Shown here one piece after another: positions 2,066-38,435 of a stretch of 42,262 nucleotides of DNA (position 1 is the stretch's first letter; each line of letters starts with the position of its first letter). The notes beneath the pieces were generated by a model. It was not told where the DNA came from, made no database searches, and worked only from the letters and a program-made list of their open reading frames with translations. The stretch comes from an uncultured Candidatus Saccharibacteria bacterium (GTDB lineage Bacteria; Patescibacteriota; Minisyncoccia; Phycocordibacterales; UBA9973). A program made the position numbers and the translations under genes. The stretch covers positions 1-42,262 of the forward strand of contig CAYJCX010000002.1 in NCBI GenBank assembly GCA_964368775.1, given 5' to 3'.

Positions 2066-3505
2066 TTAACCTAGATCAAATGGATCAAAATCTACTGTGT
2101 CTAATAAATCTTGCGCGTTTTGTATGTCTTCTTCTTGTGGAGACATAAATGCAAATTGTTTTTTAAGCATAAAGAATCCTCGCATAATGAAAGCATCCCC
2201 ATAATCGGGTGATCTTCCTAGTTCTGCTTTCATTTCATCTTTAGGAATAAGGGCCATCTTAACAGTATCATTATCCGGATTCTTAATTCGATACAGTGAA
2301 AGCTCCTGGTTAAACTCTTCATAGAATTGCATATCTTCTTCCATTGGAATTGATATAGCTACTTCATGGCGCTCGGTTAATTTAGCCATAACCCATGCAC
2401 ATTGGGTTTTAAGATTAGAAAAGTTTTGTTTCTCTAGATACTCATAGCGTGCATCTTCATTTTCTAATGGGGTTGAATTGTTTATAAATCCATATACACC
2501 AGTACATAAATCAACTACACCGCCGCCTACTCCGTCTTCATCAATAATGATATGGCTATATGGGATATTCTCAGTACGTGCATAGTCTTTTAGTTTTTGG
2601 GCTGTAACTTTAATATCTTGTTTTTGATAAACAACTTTTTTATATAGCTGCAAACCTTTCCAGAAATAGAAAACTGTTTTGTCATCTCCAAAGCGGGCCA
2701 CATCCACAGTCATGTATTTATCTTGTTCTCTAACAGTTGTTAGGGTATTAGACCAAAGATCATTAATAGGATCAAAGCCAAATAGTGTTCCGGCTACTGA
2801 ATCATATTCCCAGTTACCATCTTTAAGACGATCTCTAAGTGTTTTATCTTTTAGATTAGAAAGAGATCTTTCATATAAGGCGGATGTATGTTGGTTATCT
2901 CCGTAAAGTGCTTGAATGAAAGCATACCCAGCAGGTAGTAAATTATTCTTTGCGGGTAAATAAAAAACAGAATATGTCCAGTTCTTTTTTGGGTTTCCAG
3001 TTAATGCAAGCGTTGGGCGGATTTTAAATTCATCATTTTTATGACGGCCTACACGAGATTTAAGAACATCAAAGGCGCGAAAATCTATTTCTCCACATTC
3101 TTCCATAGCACCATCAGTATATTCGGATGATCCAAATCGTTCATAAAGCGGATCGGATGGTGCGTATTTAACATCAAGTAAATCAATACGTGATCCATTA
3201 GTAAATTCTATGTAGTGATATTGGCCGTTTAGTTTCCAGTGGACTCCTTGTTTTATATTATGAAAAGCACAGACTTTAACCCAAGTCTGGTATGTAGAAC
3301 CCATAAGGCGTGTTAATTCTTCACGAGCAATGAAAGATTTATAGCCTGGATATGCTAGAGCATTTATTAGTCTTGATTCACAAAGCCACCAAGACTTTCC
3401 TCCGCCGGCTCCTCCACCAAAAAATACATAGTCGTTACTCTTTAATGCTTGATACGCTTCGTATTGTTTCTTCGTAGGTCGTATTGTAACTGTCTGTTCC
3501 TCCAT
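2066..3505 (-). CDS. terL: terminase large subunit
   Basis: 479 aa. N-terminal Walker A-like FFGGGAGGGKSWW. C-terminal-half acidic nuclease-type motif VDVARFGDDKTVF. Flanked by the small-terminase candidate and the portal candidate. Confidence 0.9.
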   Translation of the reverse strand: MEEQTVTIRPTKKQYEAYQALKSNDYVFFGGGAGGGKSWWLCESRLINALAYPGYKSFIAREELTRLMGSTYQTWVKVCAFHNIKQGVHWKLNGQYHYIEFTNGSRIDLLDVKYAPSDPLYERFGSSEYTDGAMEECGEIDFRAFDVLKSRVGRHKNDEFKIRPTLALTGNPKKNWTYSVFYLPAKNNLLPAGYAFIQALYGDNQHTSALYERSLSNLKDKTLRDRLKDGNWEYDSVAGTLFGFDPINDLWSNTLTTVREQDKYMTVDVARFGDDKTVFYFWKGLQLYKKVVYQKQDIKVTAQKLKDYARTENIPYSHIIIDEDGVGGGVVDLCTGVYGFINNSTPLENEDARYEYLEKQNFSNLKTQCAWVMAKLTERHEVAISIPMEEDMQFYEEFNQELSLYRIKNPDNDTVKMALIPKDEMKAELGRSPDYGDAFIMRGFFMLKKQFAFMSPQEEDIQNAQDLLDTVDFDPFDLG

Positions 3506-4109
3506 TTGGATTCATAATTATGATTTGTTTTATTTCGACCTTGGATCCCTCGCCTGGTGGTAATTTATATTTACCTTTAATTTTCATATAAATATCTAGC
3601 CCATCTTTACGTGCGCGATTATCAGCAGACCAAAAATATACATAGCGAAAGTCTTGACCATGTATTATCTTTTTTACAGTACAGTTTACTTCGGCGAGCA
3701 TAATTTTAATTTCTTCATCAGTTATTTGCTCTGTATCATCTTCAATTATCTCCTCATAGTCATCTTCTTCATCTTTATTAAGATTAACTTTAGGTTTTTT
3801 AGGTTTTTTTAATGCAGGAAAAGTCATCTGGTCTAGATGTGTAGCTTTCATAAGACTTTTATGGGTTTCAATAGCTAAAGATTCCGGTATATGTTCTTTC
3901 ATTAGTTCTTCCCAGCCTTTAGATCTTGTTATTTGTTGGGGATTTTTTTGAGTAACAGCAGGAAGACCGGCATCTCTTATTGCCTTTGACACGCTAACTT
4001 TTCCAGTATTTTCCAGTTGTTCTTTGACTTTGTCAAATACTCTTCTTTGGTTAATGGTAGGTTTACGATTTATAGATTTTTTTGGTTTTACTGGGATGGT
4101 ATCTTCCAC
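3435..4109 (-). CDS. terminase small subunit (putative)
   Basis: 224 aa directly upstream of TerL. N-terminal HTH-like segment KVSVSKAIRDAGLPAVTQKNPQQI, followed by an acidic linker. Start codon is GTG (plus-strand cac at 4107-4109). The 3' end overlaps the TerL start by 71 nt in another frame. Confidence 0.5.
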   Translation of the reverse strand: MEDTIPVKPKKSINRKPTINQRRVFDKVKEQLENTGKVSVSKAIRDAGLPAVTQKNPQQITRSKGWEELMKEHIPESLAIETHKSLMKATHLDQMTFPALKKPKKPKVNLNKDEEDDYEEIIEDDTEQITDEEIKIMLAEVNCTVKKIIHGQDFRYVYFWSADNRARKDGLDIYMKIKGKYKLPPGEGSKVEIKQIIIMNPNGGTDSYNTTYEETIRSVSSIKE

Positions 4110-4136
4110 AATAGATTCATTTTAAATCAAGAGAGC

Positions 4137-4183
4137 AAAAAAAGCCAATCCTCATGGTTCTGGTTTGTCCACAGGGAAAGGCT
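4137..4183 (-). terminator. intrinsic terminator between the HNH-fusion gene and TerS
   Basis: On the minus strand AGCCUUUCC ... GGAUUGGCU form an imperfect stem (4183-4175 / 4151-4143), followed by a run of 7 U (plus-strand A-tract 4137-4143). Confidence 0.55.
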
Positions 4184-4213
4184 AAATCTTATATATTATA
4201 TTTATTATTATTA

Positions 4214-4789
4214 TTAGTCATGGGGATTGTGTGAATATGTGGGGATAACCCGACTTTTTACTGCTAACATGCCACGATCTGCCAGTGCATGATGATTAGG
4301 ACAAAGTAAAGCTAGGTTTTCTATATCATCAGTTCCACCCTTATGTCTAGGAATAATATGATGGACTTCAACTACTTCATCAAAACTACATATAAAACAT
4401 TTACTACCATACATTTGATGTAAGTAACCATATTTCCCAGCTAATTTTAATTGAAATATTTTCTTCTTTTTTTCTTCTTTTATTTCTACTTTTACTTCGG
4501 GTGTTGGATCTAGATATTTTGTAAGATCCTTATATTTTTCTAGTAAAAATTGGAATCTATTATCACTTTCACTTTTATGAATTGAATGGATTACAGTAGT
4601 GTGATCCCTGTTTAAAATCTTTGCTATCCTAGGGTATGAAAGGAAATTAGCCCTACAAAGAGAAATAAACAAATCTCTTGCTTTAACTACTTCAATATCT
4701 CTTGCAGGGCTACTAATTTCTTCCTTAGTAAATCCAGTTTCCATAAAAACTATCTTAAAAACAACCTCTTTTATTTCGTCTATTCGCAT
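4214..4789 (-). CDS. DnaA C-terminal-domain-like HTH fused to an HNH endonuclease
   Basis: 191 aa. The N-terminal SSPARDIEVVKARDLFISLCRANFLSYPRIAKILNRDHTTVIHSIHK matches the DnaA domain IV signature (compare ...ARQIAMYL...IG..FG.RDHTTVLHA). The C-terminal CFICSFDEVVEVHHIIPRHKGGTDDIENLALLCPNHHALADRG is a complete HNH zinc-finger nuclease motif. Confidence 0.8.
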   Translation of the reverse strand: MRIDEIKEVVFKIVFMETGFTKEEISSPARDIEVVKARDLFISLCRANFLSYPRIAKILNRDHTTVIHSIHKSESDNRFQFLLEKYKDLTKYLDPTPEVKVEIKEEKKKKIFQLKLAGKYGYLHQMYGSKCFICSFDEVVEVHHIIPRHKGGTDDIENLALLCPNHHALADRGMLAVKSRVIPTYSHNPHD

Positions 4790-4800
4790 ACACGTAATAT

Positions 4801-4806
4801 ATTATA
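4801..4806 (-). promoter_or_regulatory. candidate -10 element (TATAAT) for the DnaA-HTH/HNH gene
   Basis: The minus strand reads CACCTATAAT, then 11 nt, then the ATG at 4789. No convincing -35. Two DnaA-like boxes lie just upstream. Confidence 0.4.
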
Positions 4807-4832
4807 GGTGTATAACTAAAACAAGCCCAAAA

Positions 4833-4852
4833 GTGGATAAAAAAGTGGATAA
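4833..4852 (-). promoter_or_regulatory. two tandem DnaA-box-like sites (TTATCCAC x2, 12-bp period)
   Basis: Plus-strand AAGTGGATAAAAAAGTGGATAAAAAG. Exact GTGGATAA at 4833-4840 and 4845-4852, which is TTATCCAC on the coding strand. Confidence 0.6.
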
Positions 4853-4913
4853 AAAGGGGAATAAAATAAACTAAATTTTGTGAAACATTTGTGAAACGTC
4901 TTTTCCCCTTTTT
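4851..4913. repeat. 11-bp inverted repeat AAAAAGGGGAA / TTCCCCTTTTT enclosing the TTTGTGAAAC repeats
   Basis: 4851-4861 is the exact reverse complement of 4903-4913. The intervening loop is about 41 nt. Confidence 0.6.
4877..4897. repeat. tandem direct repeat TTTGTGAAAC x2 (11-bp period, iteron-like)
   Basis: Copies at 4877-4886 and 4888-4897, read directly from the sequence. Confidence 0.6.
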
Positions 4914-4921
4914 ATACCCCT

Positions 4922-4976
4922 GTAATTAACAGTTTTAATACACTGGTAATTAACAGTCTAATAACCTGTTAATTAC
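4922..4976. repeat. three copies of GTAATTAACAG (two direct, one inverted), operator-like
   Basis: GTAATTAACAG at 4922-4932 and 4946-4956. The reverse complement CTGTTAATTAC lies at 4966-4976 and overlaps the stop codon of the upstream gene. Confidence 0.6.
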
Positions 4977-5395
4977 TACAATTTACCCTTTAAAATAACA
5001 GCGCCACGCAATCTATCCCTCTTATAATTAGCAAAAACACCCTTATATCCAGTATATACGAAAAATTCCATGGCTAGATCAGTATCTAGCTCTACACCTA
5101 TGTAAATTGTTGGAATTGGGACCTCATTGTTTTCTTTATCAAATGCGCGCCAAGTGGGATCATAGGCATGTTCTCCATCTGTTACCCATGCGTGCAATAC
5201 CCATTCTCTGGTATCTGGAGTTAGAGCTATACCCTCTACATATCTAAATTGTTTATGAATATATGACGCGGCTAAACTATATTCAAAACACTCACCTACT
5301 GGACCACGATTTATAAAATCCGGACAAACTGCCGGTTTATACTCTTTTCCATTGGTTTCTATGAAATTTAGTATTCTAGAAGTTAGTTTTGACAT
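4976..5395 (-). CDS. transglutaminase-like / papain-fold cysteine peptidase domain protein (tentative)
   Basis: 139 aa. The ordered motifs GECFEYS ... LHAWV ... AYDPTW resemble the Cys / His-Ala-Trp / Asp-Pro-Thr signature of transglutaminase-like enzymes. Confidence 0.4.
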   Translation of the reverse strand: MSKLTSRILNFIETNGKEYKPAVCPDFINRGPVGECFEYSLAASYIHKQFRYVEGIALTPDTREWVLHAWVTDGEHAYDPTWRAFDKENNEVPIPTIYIGVELDTDLAMEFFVYTGYKGVFANYKRDRLRGAVILKGKL

Positions 5396-5570
5396 ACTTC
5401 TTCACATTCTTAATACCAAGTATCTTAAATATGGCCTTGCGTTGGTCTAAATTGACTAAGGCTGGGTTAAAACCGAATAGGTAGACTTGTTTACCTTTTC
5501 CCACGAAATAGTGATCCTCGCGGTTTCTGGCGCTAGATTTCCATGTTTCTATGTATATGTCTGGTTTCAT
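5376..5570 (-). CDS. hypothetical protein
   Basis: 64-aa ORF in the co-oriented tightly packed array. It overlaps the next gene by 20 nt. Confidence 0.4.
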   Translation of the reverse strand: MKPDIYIETWKSSARNREDHYFVGKGKQVYLFGFNPALVNLDQRKAIFKILGIKNVKKYVKTNF

Positions 5571-5571
5571 A

Positions 5572-5814
5572 TTAGCCTATGTACTTAACCTCTAATACTC
5601 TAAAGTCTACATAAGCTGTTTCTATTGCAAAACCTATAGCTTTTTTCATCTTCTTAATATACTCCATATCTACTACACTTGTAGTTTCATAGGTAACTTC
5701 TAAATTGTCTCCTGCGGTAATGCCAGTTATACCTAAATCCATTGCTCCCATGAAAGTAGCAATTTTATCGTACATCTTATGCTGGACCGTAACTATAAAT
5801 TTAAGTTTATTCAT
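5572..5814 (-). CDS. hypothetical protein
   Basis: 80-aa ORF with an ATG start, abutting the next gene by 1 nt. Confidence 0.45.
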   Translation of the reverse strand: MNKLKFIVTVQHKMYDKIATFMGAMDLGITGITAGDNLEVTYETTSVVDMEYIKKMKKAIGFAIETAYVDFRVLEVKYIG

Positions 5815-5877
5815 ATGTATAAGTTCTAGTTATATATAAATGGTTATGTATAAGATTTTTGTTATTTTAGTGATATA

Positions 5878-6051
5878 TCATTGGTTTAATCCACAATAAT
5901 CTTCGTACGTCTTCCTAAAGCTATCTCTAGCCTTTACTGCTTGCTTTAGATTCTTAAATGTTCCAACTCTAAACCGGACCCTGTTTATACATTTCTCTAC
6001 TACGTAGCTTCCTTTTCTGTAATATATATTCTGGTAGCCCAGTTTATTCAT
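5878..6051 (-). CDS. AP2-like DNA-binding domain protein (tentative, below the ORF-track cutoff)
   Basis: 57 codons, ATG at 6051 and TGA at 5878-5880, starting 3 nt after the preceding stop. MNKLGYQNIYYRKGSYVVEKCINRVRFRVGTFKNLKQAVKARDSFRKTYEDYCGLNQ resembles the AP2 strand-strand-strand-helix pattern. Confidence 0.4.
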   Translation of the reverse strand: MNKLGYQNIYYRKGSYVVEKCINRVRFRVGTFKNLKQAVKARDSFRKTYEDYCGLNQ

Positions 6052-12758: not shown

Positions 12759-13817
12759 TTATTCTTCTCCTGTTACTGTGCTATCTTCAATTTCTATATC
12801 ACTTGGGATATATATATTACTAGCATCTTTAATTTCTTTTAATATAGCGTCTGCCCAGTTTTTGTTTTCTTTTAGGTATTTACGTGATACGTCATAGCCT
12901 ACTCCTAGCTTTTGTCCTTGGAAAGAATATGTGTTACCAGATTTTTCAATAATTTTATATTTATCTCCTAGAGCTATTAATTCTCCCTCATACGATATTC
13001 CCTCGCCGTATAATAGGTCAAATTCTGTTTGTTTAAATGGTGGTGCTACTTTGTTTTTAACTACTTTTACTCTTGTTCTACCTCCAACAACTTCATCACC
13101 TTTTTTAATCTGTGCGATTCTACGAATATCTAGACGTACAGAACTATAGAATTTAAGAGCTTTTCCACCAGTAGTAAATTCCGGATTCACGCCAGGGAAC
13201 GCGCCGATATTCATACGGATTTGGTTAATAAAAATAACTACAGTTTTACTTTGGCTAACGATTGGGACCAGTTTTCTACATGCTTGGGACATTAGTTTTG
13301 CATGTCTTCCAATGATTTGATCTCCCATCTCTCCATCGATTTCTGCTTTTGGGGTTAGAGAAGCTACTGAATCAATAACGATTACAGCAAACTTATTGGA
13401 TCGTACCATGGCATCTACCATCTCTAGCGCGCTCTCTCCGTTCTCTGGTTGGCTCACTAGCAGTGTTCCAGTATCTACCCCGATCTTCTTAGCGTATAAG
13501 GGGTCTAAAGCGTGTTCTGCGTCAATAAAGGCGCAAATACCGCCTGTTTTCTGGGCTTGTGCAACTGCATGTAGAGCTAGAGTAGTTTTTCCACTAGATT
13601 CTGGACCAAATATTTCTACGATCCGCCCGCAAGGATAGCCGCCGATACCTAGAGCTAGATCTAAACCAAATGATCCTGTGGGTATAGCTTCTACATCCAT
13701 ATTAGGGGATTCGTCTAGGATCATTACAGATTCCTTGCCGAATTTACTCCTAATAGCAGTTAGTGTCTCATCTAATGTTTTGCCTGGACTTAAATTTTGT
13801 ATCTTTTTTTTAACCAT
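12759..13817 (-). CDS. recA: RecA recombinase (bacterial type)
   Basis: 352 aa. Colinear RecA signatures [20 protein letters not shown] (Walker A), [46 protein letters not shown] and [19 protein letters not shown]. Confidence 0.95.
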
Positions 13818-13820
13818 ATA

Positions 13821-14336
13821 TTAAAATTTAATTACTGCTAAATCGTGTATAACACTTTTTTGAAATGCGCGTATTGCTTCTTCTTTACTTACTCTTGTTT
13901 TAGCTAGATTTTCTAAATGAATAACCATTGATTCACTGAAATGTTCCACCATAAATTGTCTATAGGCTGCTTTATATCTTTCCATAGCATCATGGCATGT
14001 AGTACAGAATGTTACAGAATTAAATGGATCATATCTGGTAGCCCAAATCTCTCTCTTATTCCAATGAGAACATGATAAGAATTGGCTAGTACCACAAAGC
14101 TGGCAACATCCATCTCTCTCTTTAATATATGCGGCAAATAGACTGTCTGCTTGTTGTAAAGACCACATATCTACCTTAATAGGTTTAGCAGACTTTAGTT
14201 TAGCCTTTGATTTTAAAGGCTTTTTTGTCTTTAAAGATATAGTATGCCCTTTCATAGCCTTATATGGGTTCTTCTTATTAGTTGCATTACTAAAAGAAGA
14301 TAGAGCTGTCTTACGCTTCAATTGTGTCTGTTTCAT
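13821..14336 (-). CDS. NinG/Rap-like recombination endonuclease (putative)
   Basis: The start is taken at the ATG at 14336. ADSLFAAYIKERDGCCQLCGTSQFLSCSHWNKREIWATRYDPFNSVTFCTTCH parallels lambda NinG ...AVNAFIRERD..C.SCGT......GHY.......RF.ERN....C..CN. Confidence 0.55.
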   Translation of the reverse strand: MKQTQLKRKTALSSFSNATNKKNPYKAMKGHTISLKTKKPLKSKAKLKSAKPIKVDMWSLQQADSLFAAYIKERDGCCQLCGTSQFLSCSHWNKREIWATRYDPFNSVTFCTTCHDAMERYKAAYRQFMVEHFSESMVIHLENLAKTRVSKEEAIRAFQKSVIHDLAVIKF

Positions 14337-14337
14337 A

Positions 14338-14541
14338 CTAATATCCGGTGTTAATAGTAGCGCAGGCAATTGAGATGTCTTTTAAATCACTATTTGGGTT
14401 TAATGCAGAATATAAGCAGTTTATTTTACCCTCTGCATAACTTATTCTTTTTTCTAGAGCTATAACGTGAAAAGCCACAGCCATTAGGACTATGATTTCT
14501 AAAACTGCTATTGCGAAAATGTATCTTTTATTTTTTTCCAT
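14338..14541 (-). CDS. membrane-anchored small protein
   Basis: 67 aa with an N-terminal TM segment, YIFAIAVLEIIVLMAVAFHVI. Confidence 0.4.
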   Translation of the reverse strand: MEKNKRYIFAIAVLEIIVLMAVAFHVIALEKRISYAEGKINCLYSALNPNSDLKDISIACATINTGY

Positions 14542-14702: not shown

Positions 14703-14709
14703 GTTTATT

Positions 14710-14738
14710 ATTATAGCAACCAGCAAGTAGCAAGTAAA
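14710..14738 (-). promoter_or_regulatory. sigma70-type promoter TTTACT-N17-TGCTATAAT (extended -10), 7 nt before the ATG
   Basis: The minus strand reads ACTTTACTTGCTACTTGCTGGTTGCTATAATAATAAACATG, near-identical to the cassette at 8433-8461. Confidence 0.6.
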
Positions 14739-14757
14739 GTATTTACAATCCACCGGA

Positions 14758-14766
14758 TGTGGATAA
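14758..14766 (-). promoter_or_regulatory. perfect DnaA box (TTATCCACA) in a divergent promoter region
   Basis: Plus-strand TGTGGATAA at 14758-14766. It forms part of the TCCAC-CGGAT-GTGGA inverted repeat at 14749-14763. Confidence 0.6.
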
Positions 14767-14772
14767 CTTTTA

Positions 14773-14781
14773 TGTTAAAAT
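14773..14781 (+). promoter_or_regulatory. extended -10 promoter (TGTTAAAAT), 6 nt before the ATG at 14788
   Basis: The plus strand reads TATGTTAAAATATTTCTATG. The DnaA box sits where a -35 element would be. Confidence 0.4.
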
Positions 14782-14787
14782 ATTTCT

Positions 14788-15168
14788 ATGAAAATAAAGT
14801 TGGACGTATCTCCTTTGTCGGTTAATAAGGCCTGGCAAGGAAGACGTTTTAAAACAGATGATTACAAGCAATTTGAGAGAGATGTTTGTAAATTATTATC
14901 AGCTACATTTAAAGCTAAAAATCAAAAACAGGAGGTTTTTGTGCATTATGTATATCACATACATAACTATGGAAATACTGACACTGCTAATATGGAAAAA
15001 TGTCTAACTGATATTCTAGTTAAGCGTGGCTATATTTTTGATGACCGCTATATACGCGCGATCTATCAAAGGAAAGAAAAGGTAGATTCTGTATCTAAAG
15101 AATGGATAGATATACATATTGTACCTTATGATGGGCAAGATATAGCTGGATTTAAAAGGGTTTTATAG
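14788..15168 (+). CDS. rusA: RusA-like Holliday junction resolvase
   Basis: 126 aa. N-terminal PLSVNKAWQGRRFKTDDYKQFERD and acidic core TDTANMEKCLTDILVKRGYIFDDRYI match the RusA family pattern (..PS.N........Y..W ... D.DN..K...D.L...G...DD..I). Confidence 0.6.
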   Translation: MKIKLDVSPLSVNKAWQGRRFKTDDYKQFERDVCKLLSATFKAKNQKQEVFVHYVYHIHNYGNTDTANMEKCLTDILVKRGYIFDDRYIRAIYQRKEKVDSVSKEWIDIHIVPYDGQDIAGFKRVL

Positions 15169-15172
15169 AAAA

Positions 15173-15191
15173 ATGGATAACTAGTGGATAA
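15173..15191 (-). promoter_or_regulatory. two adjacent DnaA-box-like sites (TTATCCAC + TTATCCAT, 11-bp period)
   Basis: Plus-strand AAATGGATAACTAGTGGATAAG. ATGGATAA lies at 15173-15180 and exact GTGGATAA at 15184-15191. Confidence 0.5.
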
Positions 15192-36900: not shown

Positions 36901-37017
36901 TTCTGGATCACTTTTTCTAAAAATACCTACTGTTGTGTAAGCTGGTGCAGCTAAAGTATAACTACCAGTTATAACTGGAGCTGATCCGGATCCACCTTTT
37001 CTCCATGGGGTTCTCAT
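33952..37017 (-). CDS. tail spike / receptor-binding protein with beta-propeller-like repeats (putative)
   Basis: 1021 aa. The N-terminal LHYVYWDGLDDLGNDI resembles FlgD-Ig-like domains. It has repeated Y/W/G-rich beta segments such as RLYVGDVGSVRMQVFD. Confidence 0.4.
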   Translation of the reverse strand: MRTPWRKGGSGSAPVITGSYTLAAPAYTTVGIFRKSDPEPKTLLRTIWFNEYQSAGLHYVYWDGLDDLGNDIIATNDYEAKVLTHNMAATWETLGNTSQFNHGATVFNSYSWFVNAAISGDNVYIGESFNEGGARAGFKLLTSDILADTQTCYDVLPYATDPNRGNPNDTDLSTEYVCTNGTVTFWGGNDPYAAYSPNTLGQSWVFGTYVSNDTNYPFSSGVSEKCGLGKTYPNAIDVVLNDPTNEITGMCCNASYLWVARGTTGNIYCYDATTGALLSTSSGFTNPRKLAYDSSNGGRVWFLQGVNQMVKGTIGALGALSSGSLLIADFPTDKQTLAIDNATNTLAVICAGSNQQVWFWNISAGTPSTNHFAELGQVGGYAVDSTAANDRFSFTDNSTGQIKGLNQCYIAYDSSSRLYVGDVGSVRMQVFDSSLTFLKTVQMFGALYGVSIDLNDANRGFATAIEFDMTTQQMTANWTAQIPAGFFSQGYGLFKWCSTLSNGRTYATLEEQGVAPADTYVYELESTGTLRDTGVTINEPGLYFGNYLDKDFTIWNIFSASYAVGQQPIIRKKEITGFTGGGDPIYAASWTTVCTLQPITADDCLIDAGNTSFIGITDSGIVVLKNKEITTTSLWHLQGYDVNTGNLVWSTYRPDSRAGDFAGFLGYSGAFPDPRYFERGNIVNTNTFNDIQVVEDLVILIYNGENWKAKQTNYFNMYHTIGLPILQFGTDRVTSEAIEVCGEESSGNGFSMRMSKVDNTTYNVVNGDESVHSALHHWTVTGIDTIDILTVQIAPPTYPPTVGEDQLGSVTFNSILTTTGNITLSNPTTSTWNAQSGIQSYDSYDPDISLELDAGSNIGANRYVDLDITPVYDPALTQWEVFGDINWCDYYGPQDGSYEAGGIIEVLDSGGLVITSLGLGENASDVYLLDANVTDNIITTTDSDIIVNTLGKWNTFSIVVDATDCTITYGQETPVVSSIVDPSAVWNEPTTIRLRVKESGATFHYGTRTLAVKGLRYLETL

Positions 37018-37019
37018 AA

Positions 37020-37862
37020 CTATTGGTAAAGATAACTAATAATAACTATCCCATCGCCACCGGCTGCACCAGGCTGTGCGCCACTTGAATCACCGCCACC
37101 ACCGCCGCCGCCTTGGTTTGCACCGCCAGCAGTAGCAGGAGTGATAGTACCTGGAGAAGCTCCAGCTCCATCGCCGCCGCCGCCGTTTCCGCCTGTTCCA
37201 CCAGGAGCTATGAAAGCGTTATTTTCACTACCACCACCGCCGCCGCCGAAATCACCAGAAAATCCATTAATAGTACAAGTTATTCCAGCGCCACCGTTTC
37301 CTGGAACATTACCAACTGCATTAAATCCTGTTTGGCCTGATCCACCACCGCCACCGGCTGCAAAAGTACCGCTAGAAACTGAATTCCCACCATTAAATTG
37401 AGCGCCAGTCCCTCCACTAACACCGGAAAAGTCAGGACCGCCACCGCCACCATTACCGCCACTAAGACCAGCAGTACCGAAAGTACCACCTCCGCCGCCG
37501 CCTGTAGCTGTAATAGTATCAAAAATTGAATCTCCACCAGTACCGCCGTTTGATCCACCAGTACCGTCACCAGCTGTACCACCAACACCAACGGTAATTG
37601 TATAAGATGTAGCAGTCAATACATGCCCGCCAGCAGTTAATGTTTCACCGCCACCGCCACCACCGCCGCCGCCACCGCCACCGCCGCCCACTACGATATA
37701 CTCACAAGTATCGTCTGTTCCTACTTGGGCTACGTTAAAAAATCCATTACCAACGAATGTATGGACTTTGTAATTCCCAGATGTCGAAATAGAACCACCT
37801 GTAGCTATTGTAAAGATAGTTCCTCCTCCGCCAGTATTAACATGAATACTTTTTCTTGCCAT
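37020..37862 (-). CDS. glycine-rich domain protein (phage tail-associated type)
   Basis: 280 aa. YKVHTFVGNGFFNV...EYIVVGGGGGGGGGGGGGG...YTITVGVGG...GGDGIVIISY matches the known glycine-rich domain pattern (VVGGGGGG ... ITVG.GG ... GG.GIVII.Y). Confidence 0.65.
   Translation of the reverse strand: MARKSIHVNTGGGGTIFTIATGGSISTSGNYKVHTFVGNGFFNVAQVGTDDTCEYIVVGGGGGGGGGGGGGGETLTAGGHVLTATSYTITVGVGGTAGDGTGGSNGGTGGDSIFDTITATGGGGGGTFGTAGLSGGNGGGGGPDFSGVSGGTGAQFNGGNSVSSGTFAAGGGGGSGQTGFNAVGNVPGNGGAGITCTINGFSGDFGGGGGGSENNAFIAPGGTGGNGGGGDGAGASPGTITPATAGGANQGGGGGGGDSSGAQPGAAGGDGIVIISYLYQ
37647..37688 (-). repeat. (GGY)14 trinucleotide tract encoding 14 consecutive glycines
   Basis: The plus strand reads accgccaccgccaccaccgccgccgccaccgccaccgccgcc. 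It is by far the most GC-rich low-complexity patch in the window. Confidence 0.8.
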
Positions 37863-37865
37863 ATA

Positions 37866-38435
37866 TTATGTAGTTCTAGTTGTTTTTAGAGATGCTTGTA
37901 AATTATCTAGTGTAGTAGGGGAAGAAATAACTAATGTTACTTTATCACCTATTGCTACTGCATTTGCTGCTGAACCTGTAGCTGTAGCAATAGTGGTACT
38001 AACAGACACCGCTGAAATACCGGTTACTGGGGTACCATTAATTTGAACCGCAGCGGTACAAGAACCAGCACCAGCTATAATATTTAAAGTGTTTATTGTA
38101 TATGGATAAGCAGCAGATAATTCTAAAGTATATGTCTGGGCTGCAATACTAGTCCCTGAATCTTCAAAAGAGATAGATTCTACTAAACCAACAACATCTA
38201 CACCTGTAACTACTAAATCGCCACCTGTTACTGTAAATCCAGTAATAGCTTTAATAACTTTTAAGTCTGGAGTTGTAGTAGGGTTAGTTACTGTAATTGA
38301 TCCATCGGCTGATCCAACACTAGTTACTGTTCCAGACCCAGAAACGACTGCCCATTCTACATTCTGCTCATCGGCAGAAACTTTAAGAAACTTGCCGGCG
38401 TTTCCTCTAAGATCTGGTAATGATAAGGTTCGCAT
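37866..38435 (-). CDS. structural-module hypothetical protein
   Basis: 189 aa, Thr/Val/Gly/Ser-rich and beta-type. Confidence 0.35.
   Translation of the reverse strand: MRTLSLPDLRGNAGKFLKVSADEQNVEWAVVSGSGTVTSVGSADGSITVTNPTTTPDLKVIKAITGFTVTGGDLVVTGVDVVGLVESISFEDSGTSIAAQTYTLELSAAYPYTINTLNIIAGAGSCTAAVQINGTPVTGISAVSVSTTIATATGSAANAVAIGDKVTLVISSPTTLDNLQASLKTTRTT

Follow-up and report, generated by a model that had tools for sequence, protein, structure and literature searches.

What is the purpose of a 187-nucleotide (nt) non-coding region in which four systems of repeats are crowded between two genes of a phage? The question arises at positions 4790-4976 of a contig of 42,262 bp, a phage genome with nearly every gene on the minus strand, which as a whole is called the window throughout. 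A first-pass annotation of this DNA had considered the region a candidate replication origin, operator or packaging (pac) site. The interpretation that we favor, to which we would give a probability of roughly 0.55, is that it constitutes the upstream arm, carrying a cluster of DnaA boxes and a promoter, of an oriC-like and DnaA-read origin and control cassette. Judged from sequence comparison, this cassette is composed of three parts: the intergenic arm, a gene coding for a fusion of DnaA domain IV with an HNH nuclease, and an element of boxes, trinucleotides and AT-rich DNA at the 3' end of this gene that is closed by a reverse box. The interest would lie less in the 187 bp than in the whole cassette. 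Its components and immediate borders, with open reading frames abbreviated as ORFs and amino acids as aa, are the following:

4976-5395, minus strand: ORF of 139 aa, whose stop codon borders the repeat region
4790-4975: non-coding gap between that stop codon and the ATG (4789) of the 191-aa ORF
4922-4976, minus strand: hairpin 1, a copy of GTAATTAACAG at 4976-4966 followed by reverse complements at 4956-4946 and 4932-4922
4849-4920, minus strand: hairpin 2, the 13-bp inverted repeat (4915-4903 and 4861-4849) around two GTTTCACAAA repeats at 4897-4877
4832-4863, minus strand: three DnaA-type boxes in the same orientation with a period of 11-12 bp, directed at the fusion gene (TTATTCCCC at 4863-4855, TTATCCACT at 4852-4844 and TTATCCACT at 4840-4832)
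4787-4815, minus strand: putative promoter/operator of the fusion gene (TTATACACC at 4815-4807, TATAAT at 4806-4801, ATATTAC, and GTGTAT at 4793-4788)
4214-4789, minus strand: ORF of 191 aa, the fusion gene (DnaA domain IV plus HNH)
4188-4248, minus strand: element resembling the basal unwinding system (BUS) of oriC, with abutting boxes TTATCCCCA (4248-4240), ATATTCACA (4238-4230) and CAATCCCCA (4229-4221), a spacer TGA, the trinucleotides CTA ATA ATA ATA ATA at 4217-4203 (stop codon at 4216-4214) and a pure A/T tract at 4202-4191
4165-4173, plus strand: reverse DnaA box TTGTCCACA, closing the AT-rich tract (12.9 bits in the position weight matrix, PWM, described below)

All four repeat systems of the first-pass annotation were found, at or within 2-4 nt of where it had placed them. 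The two DnaA-like boxes with a 12-bp period are copies of AAAAGTGGATAA at 4829-4840 and 4841-4852, after which comes a degenerate third 12-mer at 4853-4864. On the minus strand AAAAGTGGATAA reads TTATCCACT, which matches the DnaA box TTATCCACA at 8 of 9 positions. The inverted repeat exists as well, only that its length is 13 nt and not the 11 reported: ATAAAAAGGGGAA at 4849-4861 and TTCCCCTTTTTAT at 4903-4915 are 100% complementary, with the arms 41 nt apart. Enclosed by it are two TTTGTGAAAC repeats with an 11-bp period (4877-4886 and 4888-4897), and beyond it follow three copies of GTAATTAACAG, two of them direct (4922-4932 and 4946-4956) and one inverted (4966-4976). Neither TTTGTGAAAC nor GTAATTAACAG has further exact copies in the window. 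The density of these repeats is indeed unusual. Repeated 10-mers span 101 of the 187 nt; in 2000 dinucleotide-preserving shuffles they spanned 5.4 nt on average and never more than 66, and among 2104 segments of the genome a coverage of 101 nt was reached only by those overlapping 4790-4976. Second in repeat density was a GC-rich (0.49 vs. about 0.36) and repeat-rich stretch at about 37000-38000, within the structural genes. Positions 4790-4975 are not touched by any ORF of at least 20 aa, and within 4790-4976 we detected no tRNA and no match to Rfam even at a permissive threshold.

We have compared the region with about 21 non-redundant loci in which homologues of the fusion protein, 38-51% identical to it, are encoded. 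A PWM was trained only on the boxes of these relatives, and hits were accepted from the 99.5th percentile upwards. The two TTATCCACT boxes scored 11.7 bits each, at the 99.99th percentile, and the bin 4800-5000 was the densest of the window, with 11 hits compared to a genome average of 2.0 per 200 nt and 5 in the next-best bin. The matrix also flagged TTATACACC (4815-4807) and the two arms of the 13-bp inverted repeat, TTTTCCCCT and TTATTCCCC; the three copies of GTAATTAACAG were flagged weakly. The TTTGTGAAAC repeats, considered as relaxed DnaA boxes, fell below the threshold and were rejected. Among the relatives, tandem boxes with a period of 10-12 bp recur, and in most of the loci boxes with at most one mismatch to TTATCCACA are concentrated in the 270 nt that precede the gene and, once more, around its stop codon. 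An unbiased count of 7-mers in the 260 nt preceding the gene, relative to the remainder of the 21 loci, ranked fragments of the box highest: ATCCACA was enriched 18 times (13 of 21 loci), TATCCAC and TATACAC 20 times, ATCCCCA 16 times and ATGCACA 21 times.

The comparison thus separates the boxes from the rest of the repeats. The closest phage, L116, has the same gene order, with a TerL 73%, a portal 68% and a fusion protein 45% identical to those of the window. Its intergenic DNA has diverged, yet this phage retains the boxes and the reverse box together with the array of trinucleotides. Missing from it, and from every relative compared, are the repeats GTAATTAACAG and TTTGTGAAAC as well as the inverted repeat of 13 bp, so the proposal of four independent iteron-like systems is not supported. 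Conservation in relatives, the check that had been suggested for the region, was found for the DnaA-like boxes and not for the other repeats; an origin and an operator both remain in agreement with the comparative data. We do not read the other repeats as separate iteron systems. Origins of the iteron type have at least three direct repeats of about 17-22 bp together with a Rep/O gene, and what we see here are repeats of 10-12 bp in 2-3 copies, with no Rep/O-like protein among those of the window. The region showed no differences in two other samples with the same protein (L202 and L203), and population variation could thus not be drawn upon.

DNA that is more origin-like lies outside of the repeat region and of the coordinates that had been indicated, at 4248-4165 in the 3' end of the fusion gene. 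On the minus strand this stretch reads TTATCCCCA-c-ATATTCACA-CAATCCCCA-tga-CTA ATA ATA ATA ATA-AATATAATATAT-aagatttagcctttccc-TGTGGACAA. Because the reverse box lies past the AT tract, the tract is bracketed by convergent boxes. The BUS of Bacillus subtilis has been described as 3'-AATAGGTGT TTAGGTGT CCGG GATGATAATGAAGATGAT-5' (Pelliciari 2021), that is, on the TTATCCACA strand, TTATCCACA-AATCCACA-GGCC-CTA CTA TTA..., with CTACTATTA as its trinucleotide part. According to the same work, a BUS has a box with two mismatches at most, at 0-16 bp from three or more trinucleotides with a central A on the strand complementary to TTATCCACA, of which the commonest first unit is GAT; a weaker second box is optional, and the gap is of about 4 bp. 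The phage element conforms to this description, and differs from it in the trinucleotides that come after the first. In the window, ATATTCACA has two mismatches and a spacer of 12 bp and is preceded by TTATCCCCA with one mismatch, the abutting proximal 9-mer CAATCCCCA having three mismatches to TTATCCACA; in the relatives the boxes of the element have 0-1 mismatch and a 3-bp spacer. The trinucleotides are 3'-GAT TAT TAT TAT TAT-5' in the window and number 3-6 units in the relatives, mostly with GAT first. A tandem or abutting second box is found in the window and in L113, L200, L006, L069, L118 and L122, and the gap before the trinucleotides is GC-leaning in the relatives (GGA, GGG, CCC or GCC) and TGA in the window.

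The equivalents in relatives are laid out alike: TTATCCACAcATCCACAggaATAATAGTAATAATA (also given as TTATCCACAcATCCACAggaATAATAGTAATA) in L200, TTTTCCACATATCCACAggaCTAGTAATA in L113, TTATCCACAaccATAATAATAGTAATA in L116, TAATCCACAgggTTAATAGTAATAGTA in L069 and TTACCCACAcccCTAGTAGTAGTAATA in L114, each followed by an A/T tract and often then by a reverse box. The reverse box was located 40-70 nt past the trinucleotide array in L002, L113, L116, L201, L241 and L323. With a simple BUS score, the 3' element was joint top in the 42-kb window and, both strands considered, top of the locus in 11 of the 21 loci. Strict BUS criteria gave 10 matches in 2.1 Mb of fetched DNA, seven of them at the 3' position of the gene. 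The element is translated in differing frames from one locus to another (...YPQD*, LSTPL*, FSTSPTTTINI*) and is located wholly after the stop codon in L201 and L125; in the window its boxes encode a disordered tail, residues 181-190. In the comparison with L116 the element was conserved and the flanking DNA was not. Its conservation is at the DNA level.

Besides, the element is found where the gene is not. We scanned viral contigs with the pattern WTCCACANNNNTARTARTARTA, which gave mostly chance or hairpin matches, about 8 of 120 stretches being real box clusters; since the pattern forces purines, its matches are unusable for judging the composition of the trinucleotides. Long intergenic regions of L229, L241/L249, L254, L281, L312 and L323 carry the element with no fusion gene nearby, in the form of 4-10 DnaA boxes ending in tandem boxes, GC gap, trinucleotides and A/T tract. 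In L323 its sequence, TTTTCCACATATCCACAggaCTAATAGTAATA, is almost the same as that of the coding version in L113. RusA is the next gene after the element in L254 and comes directly after the fusion gene and element in L201. The presence of the element in the absence of the phage protein suggests that it is read by a host factor. Origin-like elements of this type thus belong to a wider set of phages and do not need the phage protein.

The gene that separates both box clusters codes for a protein of 191 aa with a DnaA domain IV (PF08299, 1.6e-14, residues 9-72) and an HNH nuclease domain (PF01844, 5e-10), the two parts extending over residues ~1-95 and ~117-178. Searched against solved structures, the family profile matched E. 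coli DnaA domain IV on its box (1J1V) with 7e-10. R30, D62, H63, T64 and H68 align with E. coli R399, D433, H434, T435 and H439, residues that contact the bases of the DnaA box. Over 23 members of the family the box-contact positions are invariant or nearly so (R38 and H63 invariant, R30 and D62 in at least 90%), and the motif CxxC...HH...N...CPNHH is invariant. The AlphaFold model, with a mean predicted local distance difference test (pLDDT) score of 83, consists of two confident domains with a disordered linker (97-115) and a disordered tail (182-191). Its best structural matches were DnaA DNA-binding domains (3PVP, 8BTG, 1L8Q and 1J1V), followed by the HNH domains of McrA, IscB and Cas9. 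The model has only these two small domains, and without an AAA+ domain III the protein does not qualify as a DnaA orthologue. Fusions of this kind constitute a family of their own, with 51 clusters at 90% identity and, out of 1.84 billion representative proteins, between ~57 (E <= 1e-30) and 70 clusters at 50% identity. By tblastn against 50,697 phage records only the HNH part was matched, in Lak megaphages, indicating that this collection of cultured phages does not contain the fusion. The profile search also retrieved three proteins (P0104, P0105 and P0110, of 308, 673 and 1680 aa) with 3-9 tandem stretches similar to DnaA domain IV.

Upstream of the gene, boxes accompany what seems to be a promoter under autoregulation, its leader being very short. 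The inverted half-box GTGTAT (4793-4788) runs into the ATG (4789-4787), and the whole reads TTATACACC-TATAAT-ATATTAC-GTGTATG. A TATAAT-like tract bracketed by inverted boxes or half-boxes before the start codon appears too in L002, L006, L069, L113, L115, L116, L200 and L201, the version of L113 being TTATCCACAataatatataatTGTGGATATG. A scan with the sigma-70 consensus detected no full promoter within the region. Boxes were seen at other places of the window. A perfect one, TGTGGATAA, lies at 14758-14766 in the divergent early-promoter region, 22 nt before the ATG of RusA, and the tandem TGGATAActaGTGGATAA at 15172-15191 is just past the RusA stop, so that this gene is flanked by boxes. A reverse box-like sequence, TGTGGAAGA at 4102-4110, covers the GTG start (4109) of the 224-aa ORF and echoes the design of the fusion gene.

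As for the repeats that are not boxes, their sense RNA folds into two adjacent hairpins with a minimum free energy of -42.2 kcal/mol (z = -4.65, equalled by 0 of 200 shuffles). Hairpin 1, with an 11-bp stem in the minimum-free-energy fold, starts at the stop codon of the upstream 139-aa ORF and is specific to this phage lineage. Hairpin 2 has a G4/C4 stem core and is followed on the sense RNA by a U-rich tract. A scan with the terminator consensus made no call within the region, because the 41-nt loop of hairpin 2 is too long for it. At the equivalent place of the relatives there are canonical terminators, a stem-loop plus T-run, with boxes directly after. The fold together with these terminators is the reason why we read the non-box repeats as likely lineage-specific terminator structures, hairpin 2 being the one likely to terminate the upstream early operon. 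They perhaps double as weak variants of the DnaA box, given that each copy of GTAATTAACAG contains the variant TAATTAACA (99.6th percentile in the PWM) and the arms of hairpin 2 resemble the opposed variants TTTTCCCCT and TTATTCCCC.

The region sits, as had been described, between the early genes and the block formed by the DnaA helix-turn-helix/HNH gene and the terminase, all on the minus strand. The remaining landmarks of the genome are these:

14788-15168, plus strand: RusA, the sole clear gene on this strand
near 14704-14787: divergent early promoter region
minus strand: early genes, among them a NinG-like protein and a bacterial-type RecA, ahead of many small ORFs of which the 139-aa ORF is the last
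minus strand, GTG start at 4109: TerS-sized ORF of 224 aa, after the 191-aa ORF, with no family match
2066-3505, minus strand: TerL, followed by a portal-sized ORF
beyond the contig junction: head and tail genes, an ORF of 2631 aa, lysin and holin

Among the proteins of the window we recognised RecA (PF00154, 3e-122), the NinG-like protein and RusA, and no initiator, helicase, primase or polymerase. The combination of RecA and a NinG/Rap-like nuclease, both encoded within 12759-14369, with none of those replication proteins suggests that the replication of this phage is host-dependent and linked to recombination. The contig ends show no terminal repeat and fall outside of 4790-4976, and megablast of 4000-6000 against the 50,697 phage records produced no match. 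A 57-aa ORF at 5878-6051 has a match to an HNH-endonuclease PHROG (phrog_99, 1e-8) over the DNA-binding part alone; this ORF is probably what had been called an AP2-like protein and may be the remnant of another homing endonuclease.

On balance, and by analogy, the layout of the cassette seems to be a copy of the ancestral bipartite oriC, with boxes on both sides of dnaA and the BUS downstream. Host DnaA, the phage fusion protein by means of its DnaA-type helix-turn-helix, or both would occupy the boxes. Those of 4790-4976 would act as the distal cluster for DnaA loading and double as autoregulatory operator of the fusion gene. Strands would open across the gene, in the box/trinucleotide/AT element at 4248-4188, and the host machinery would then start the replication of a phage that lacks replication genes of its own and has, for this very reason, a motive to borrow the initiator of the host. 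The HNH domain probably would nick near the bound boxes. In B. subtilis looping allows the distal boxes to work over distances of 132-462 bp, whichever way they are oriented; the spacing from the distal boxes to the putative unwinding site is here ~600 bp, slightly past that tested range. Boxes at bacterial dnaA promoters serve autoregulation. More speculatively, and with clearly less confidence on our part than for an oriC-like cassette as such, these phages may carry a portable mimic of a chromosome origin with a DnaA-domain-IV/HNH nuclease specialised on it. In that event the nuclease could be an origin nickase by which an initiation opened by host DnaA is turned into replication of the rolling-circle or recombination-driven type that would feed the adjacent packaging genes, or else a homing endonuclease that invades origins through the DNA-binding domain of the initiator.

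Several observations weigh against an origin read by host DnaA. Three of the four repeat systems are lineage-specific, and the homologues in L117, L119 and L146 have few boxes or none. Cumulative GC skew showed a monotonic fall and no origin signal, which is uninformative here since nearly all genes are on one strand and transcription dominates. The proximal boxes of the window (TTATCCCCA and AATCCCCA) have a C at position 7, normally invariant in bacteria, a variant that is enriched in the relatives too; the reader of the boxes may accordingly be a phage protein rather than host DnaA. The host itself is probably Bacteroidota-like, judging only from TerL, which is 35-42% identical to the terminases of Bacteroides, Polaribacter, Cellulophaga and Flavobacterium phages. 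The trinucleotides depart from the 3'-G/A-A-T-5' consensus, as TAT or CAT occupies units 2-5 both in the window and in the majority of the relatives (L124, with CTA CTA CAA CTA, is an exception), and the run of TAA/TAG doubles as in-frame stop codons. Inside 4790-4976 the series TTATCCACT-ttt-TTATCCACT-tttggg-CTT GTT TTA GTT ATA fits a loose rule of five NAN units, with a BUS score of 7 that is below the top matches and indistinguishable from background. Finally, there are boxes at other promoters of the window (14758 and 15172-15191), and with them a purely regulatory role fits equally well.

This last point leads to the simplest alternative, an ordinary terminator followed by a promoter/operator, where the boxes would repress the fusion gene and other promoters and have no role in replication. 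Repression would be exerted by the DnaA-domain-IV protein of the phage or by host DnaA in the role of a transcription factor. We consider it unlikely as a full explanation, in spite of the two sense-RNA hairpins (z = -4.65) with the U-rich tract behind them, the canonical terminators at the equivalent place in relatives, the inverted half-boxes around TATAAT and over the ATG in the window and at least eight relatives, and the boxes at 14758-14766, at 15172-15191 and over the GTG start of the 224-aa ORF. It leaves unexplained the conserved 3' box/trinucleotide/AT element, the existence of this element in phages devoid of the fusion gene, and why a repressor should retain an intact and invariant HNH catalytic motif. 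Neither does it conflict with the origin model, because the boxes of bacterial dnaA promoters do both jobs. Packaging is a different matter. A role in packaging recognition had been suggested from the position of the region. It would then be a pac or cos site at which the HNH protein, guided by its DnaA-type domain, and the adjacent terminase would cut concatemers in the manner of HK97, and the order HNH, TerS-sized ORF, TerL and portal is indeed found in the window, L002 and L116; many phage HNH genes are moreover site-specific nickases near cos and terminase (PMC3592412). This adjacency, which should be constant in an HK97-type HNH-terminase module, breaks down across the loci: the gene is apart from the terminase or has other neighbours (GroEL, RusA) in L113, L114, L115, L117, L118 and L201, and the terminase family changes from locus to locus (GP3_package, Terminase_3, Terminase_6N). 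TerL relatives at 39-49% identity lack both the gene and upstream box clusters, the 224-aa ORF has no TerS signature, and the contig ends are not located here and carry no terminal repeat. We have found nothing in support of a pac/cos role, the cassette is not linked to the terminase in relatives, and we regard this explanation as very improbable.

The mobility of the cassette has to be considered separately. L001 (1022-1677) and L006 (5867-6594) have flanks 96-98% identical around a differing stretch of ~650-730 bp that spans from within the upstream box region through the fusion gene. Their fusion alleles are so divergent that the HNH part alone aligns (75%), and the position of the box/trinucleotide element differs, L006 having it at the 3' end of the gene and L001 directly before the start codon. 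This pair is, by its alignment, a clean example of cassette replacement. Neither the cassette nor the box clusters were found in the TerL relatives L324-L326 (39-49% identity), L116 being the exception, and the neighbours of the cassette vary from terminases of the GP3_package, Terminase_3 and Terminase_6N families to GroEL, RusA and, in L119, housekeeping genes. The allele swap, the patchy presence and the varied neighbours indicate that the cassette behaves as an exchangeable module. All of this could be accommodated by a selfish, free-standing HNH homing endonuclease that captured DnaA domain IV for targeting and was inserted into a box-rich phage origin, the boxes of 4790-4976 being then the left half of a split target and not sites that the phage employs jointly with the protein. 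It would account for the divergent L001/L006 alleles on nearly identical flanks with the element on opposite sides of the gene, for the absence of the cassette in the closest phages by TerL other than L116, for the differing gene neighbourhoods, and for an ORF that enters the box/trinucleotide element in varying frames and as a disordered tail. Phage HNH nickase domains are also functional when fused to foreign DNA-binding modules (PMC3592412). Intact origin-like elements with no gene, which likewise speak for such an insertion, are known to us in distant phages only, and a search for an empty site with the left flank of L001/L006 recovered just those two contigs, so that no empty allele on an otherwise identical backbone is at hand. 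Boxes persist on both flanks, by which the carrier is not obviously immune to cutting, and the conserved promoter/operator design suggests integrated regulation. We think such an insertion rather improbable as the explanation of the region; moreover, it concerns how the gene arrived and leaves the origin or operator function of the boxes unaffected. Repression and homing both overlap an oriC-like cassette rather than exclude it.

The oriC-like cassette can be set beside several known systems. The incAB-dnaA-incC arrangement of B. subtilis is a bipartite oriC with a BUS, and the oriC of Helicobacter pylori is likewise described as consisting of two parts (Richardson 2019; Pelliciari 2021). With them the cassette shares the box clusters on both sides of a gene with DnaA domain IV, the distal boxes in either orientation seen in B. 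subtilis and, downstream, tandem boxes of the same orientation, a GC-leaning gap, at least three central-A trinucleotides beginning with 3'-GAT-5', and A/T-rich DNA. It differs in belonging to a phage genome of 42 kb and in its central gene, which has domain IV and HNH without AAA+ and is not dnaA. The later trinucleotide units (TAT/CAT), the many boxes with C at position 7 and the reverse box closing the AT tract are also unlike the BUS. The P1 oriR, pSC101 and F origins have DnaA boxes that recruit host DnaA, in addition to iterons and a Rep of their own. Like these, and like the dnaA promoter, the cassette has boxes beside or over a promoter, in a mobile replicon; it is unlike them in that no Rep or iterons were detected and in its trinucleotide array, which is of the type found in chromosomal origins. 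Lambda-type origins lie inside the initiator gene or next to it, protein and site being exchanged together as a cassette. Here too the sites and the gene of the predicted reader travel together, as in the swap of L001 versus L006, only that the boxes are of the host DnaA type instead of phage iterons and the protein has no initiator or helicase-loader domain.

With regard to the nuclease, HNH proteins of the HK97 gp74 type are terminase-associated nickases (Xu and Gupta 2013, PMC3592412). The fusion protein resembles them in its small size, in the location of its gene, which immediately precedes the terminase genes of the window, and in its zinc-HNH motif CxxC...HH...N...CxxH. It departs from them in having a DnaA helix-turn-helix and not a zinc ribbon, in a link to the terminase that is not family-wide, and in being flanked by its own candidate sites. 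The engineered Zif268::N.phiGamma is a nicking enzyme made of zinc fingers and HNH (PMC3592412); with it, and with free-standing HNH homing endonucleases, our protein shares the plan of DNA-binding domain, flexible linker and minimal HNH, the difference being that this is a natural fusion that uses the DNA-binding domain of a replication initiator.

DnaA boxes in mobile replicons are nothing new. HNH genes beside terminases have been described before (PMC3592412). In the searchable literature we found neither a DnaA-trio-type unwinding module on phage genomes, nor the combination of DnaA domain IV and HNH, nor Bac_DnaA_C in phages, so the new components would be the phage module, the fusion, and the placement of the fusion inside the module. 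If the proposal is right, phages without replication genes would start replication by showing the host initiator a copy of the chromosomal unwinding module; the DnaA-box/DnaA-trio system would extend past chromosomes, with small natural substrates on which to test it. The fusion protein is predicted to be a natural programmable nickase aimed at DnaA boxes. It could allow phages to control or sabotage origins, possibly that of the host too, and it could serve as a tool enzyme. The comparison also provides a practical rule by which origins can be annotated in uncultured phages of the Bacteroidota type and related ones.

Some of the neighbourhoods in which the gene appears deserve mention. In L119 (1-5693) a homologue with 47% identity is located beside HisRS, signal peptidase, a UbiE-type methyltransferase and the EngB GTPase, without box clusters; this locus may represent the edge of a prophage, a copy that was domesticated or a chimera of the assembly. 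GroEL-like (Cpn60) genes are found just downstream of the cassette in L113 (6260-7783), L114 (5722-7452), L201 (2996-4669) and L115 (1434-2444), and in one of these four contigs there is a reverse transcriptase (RVT_1) upstream.

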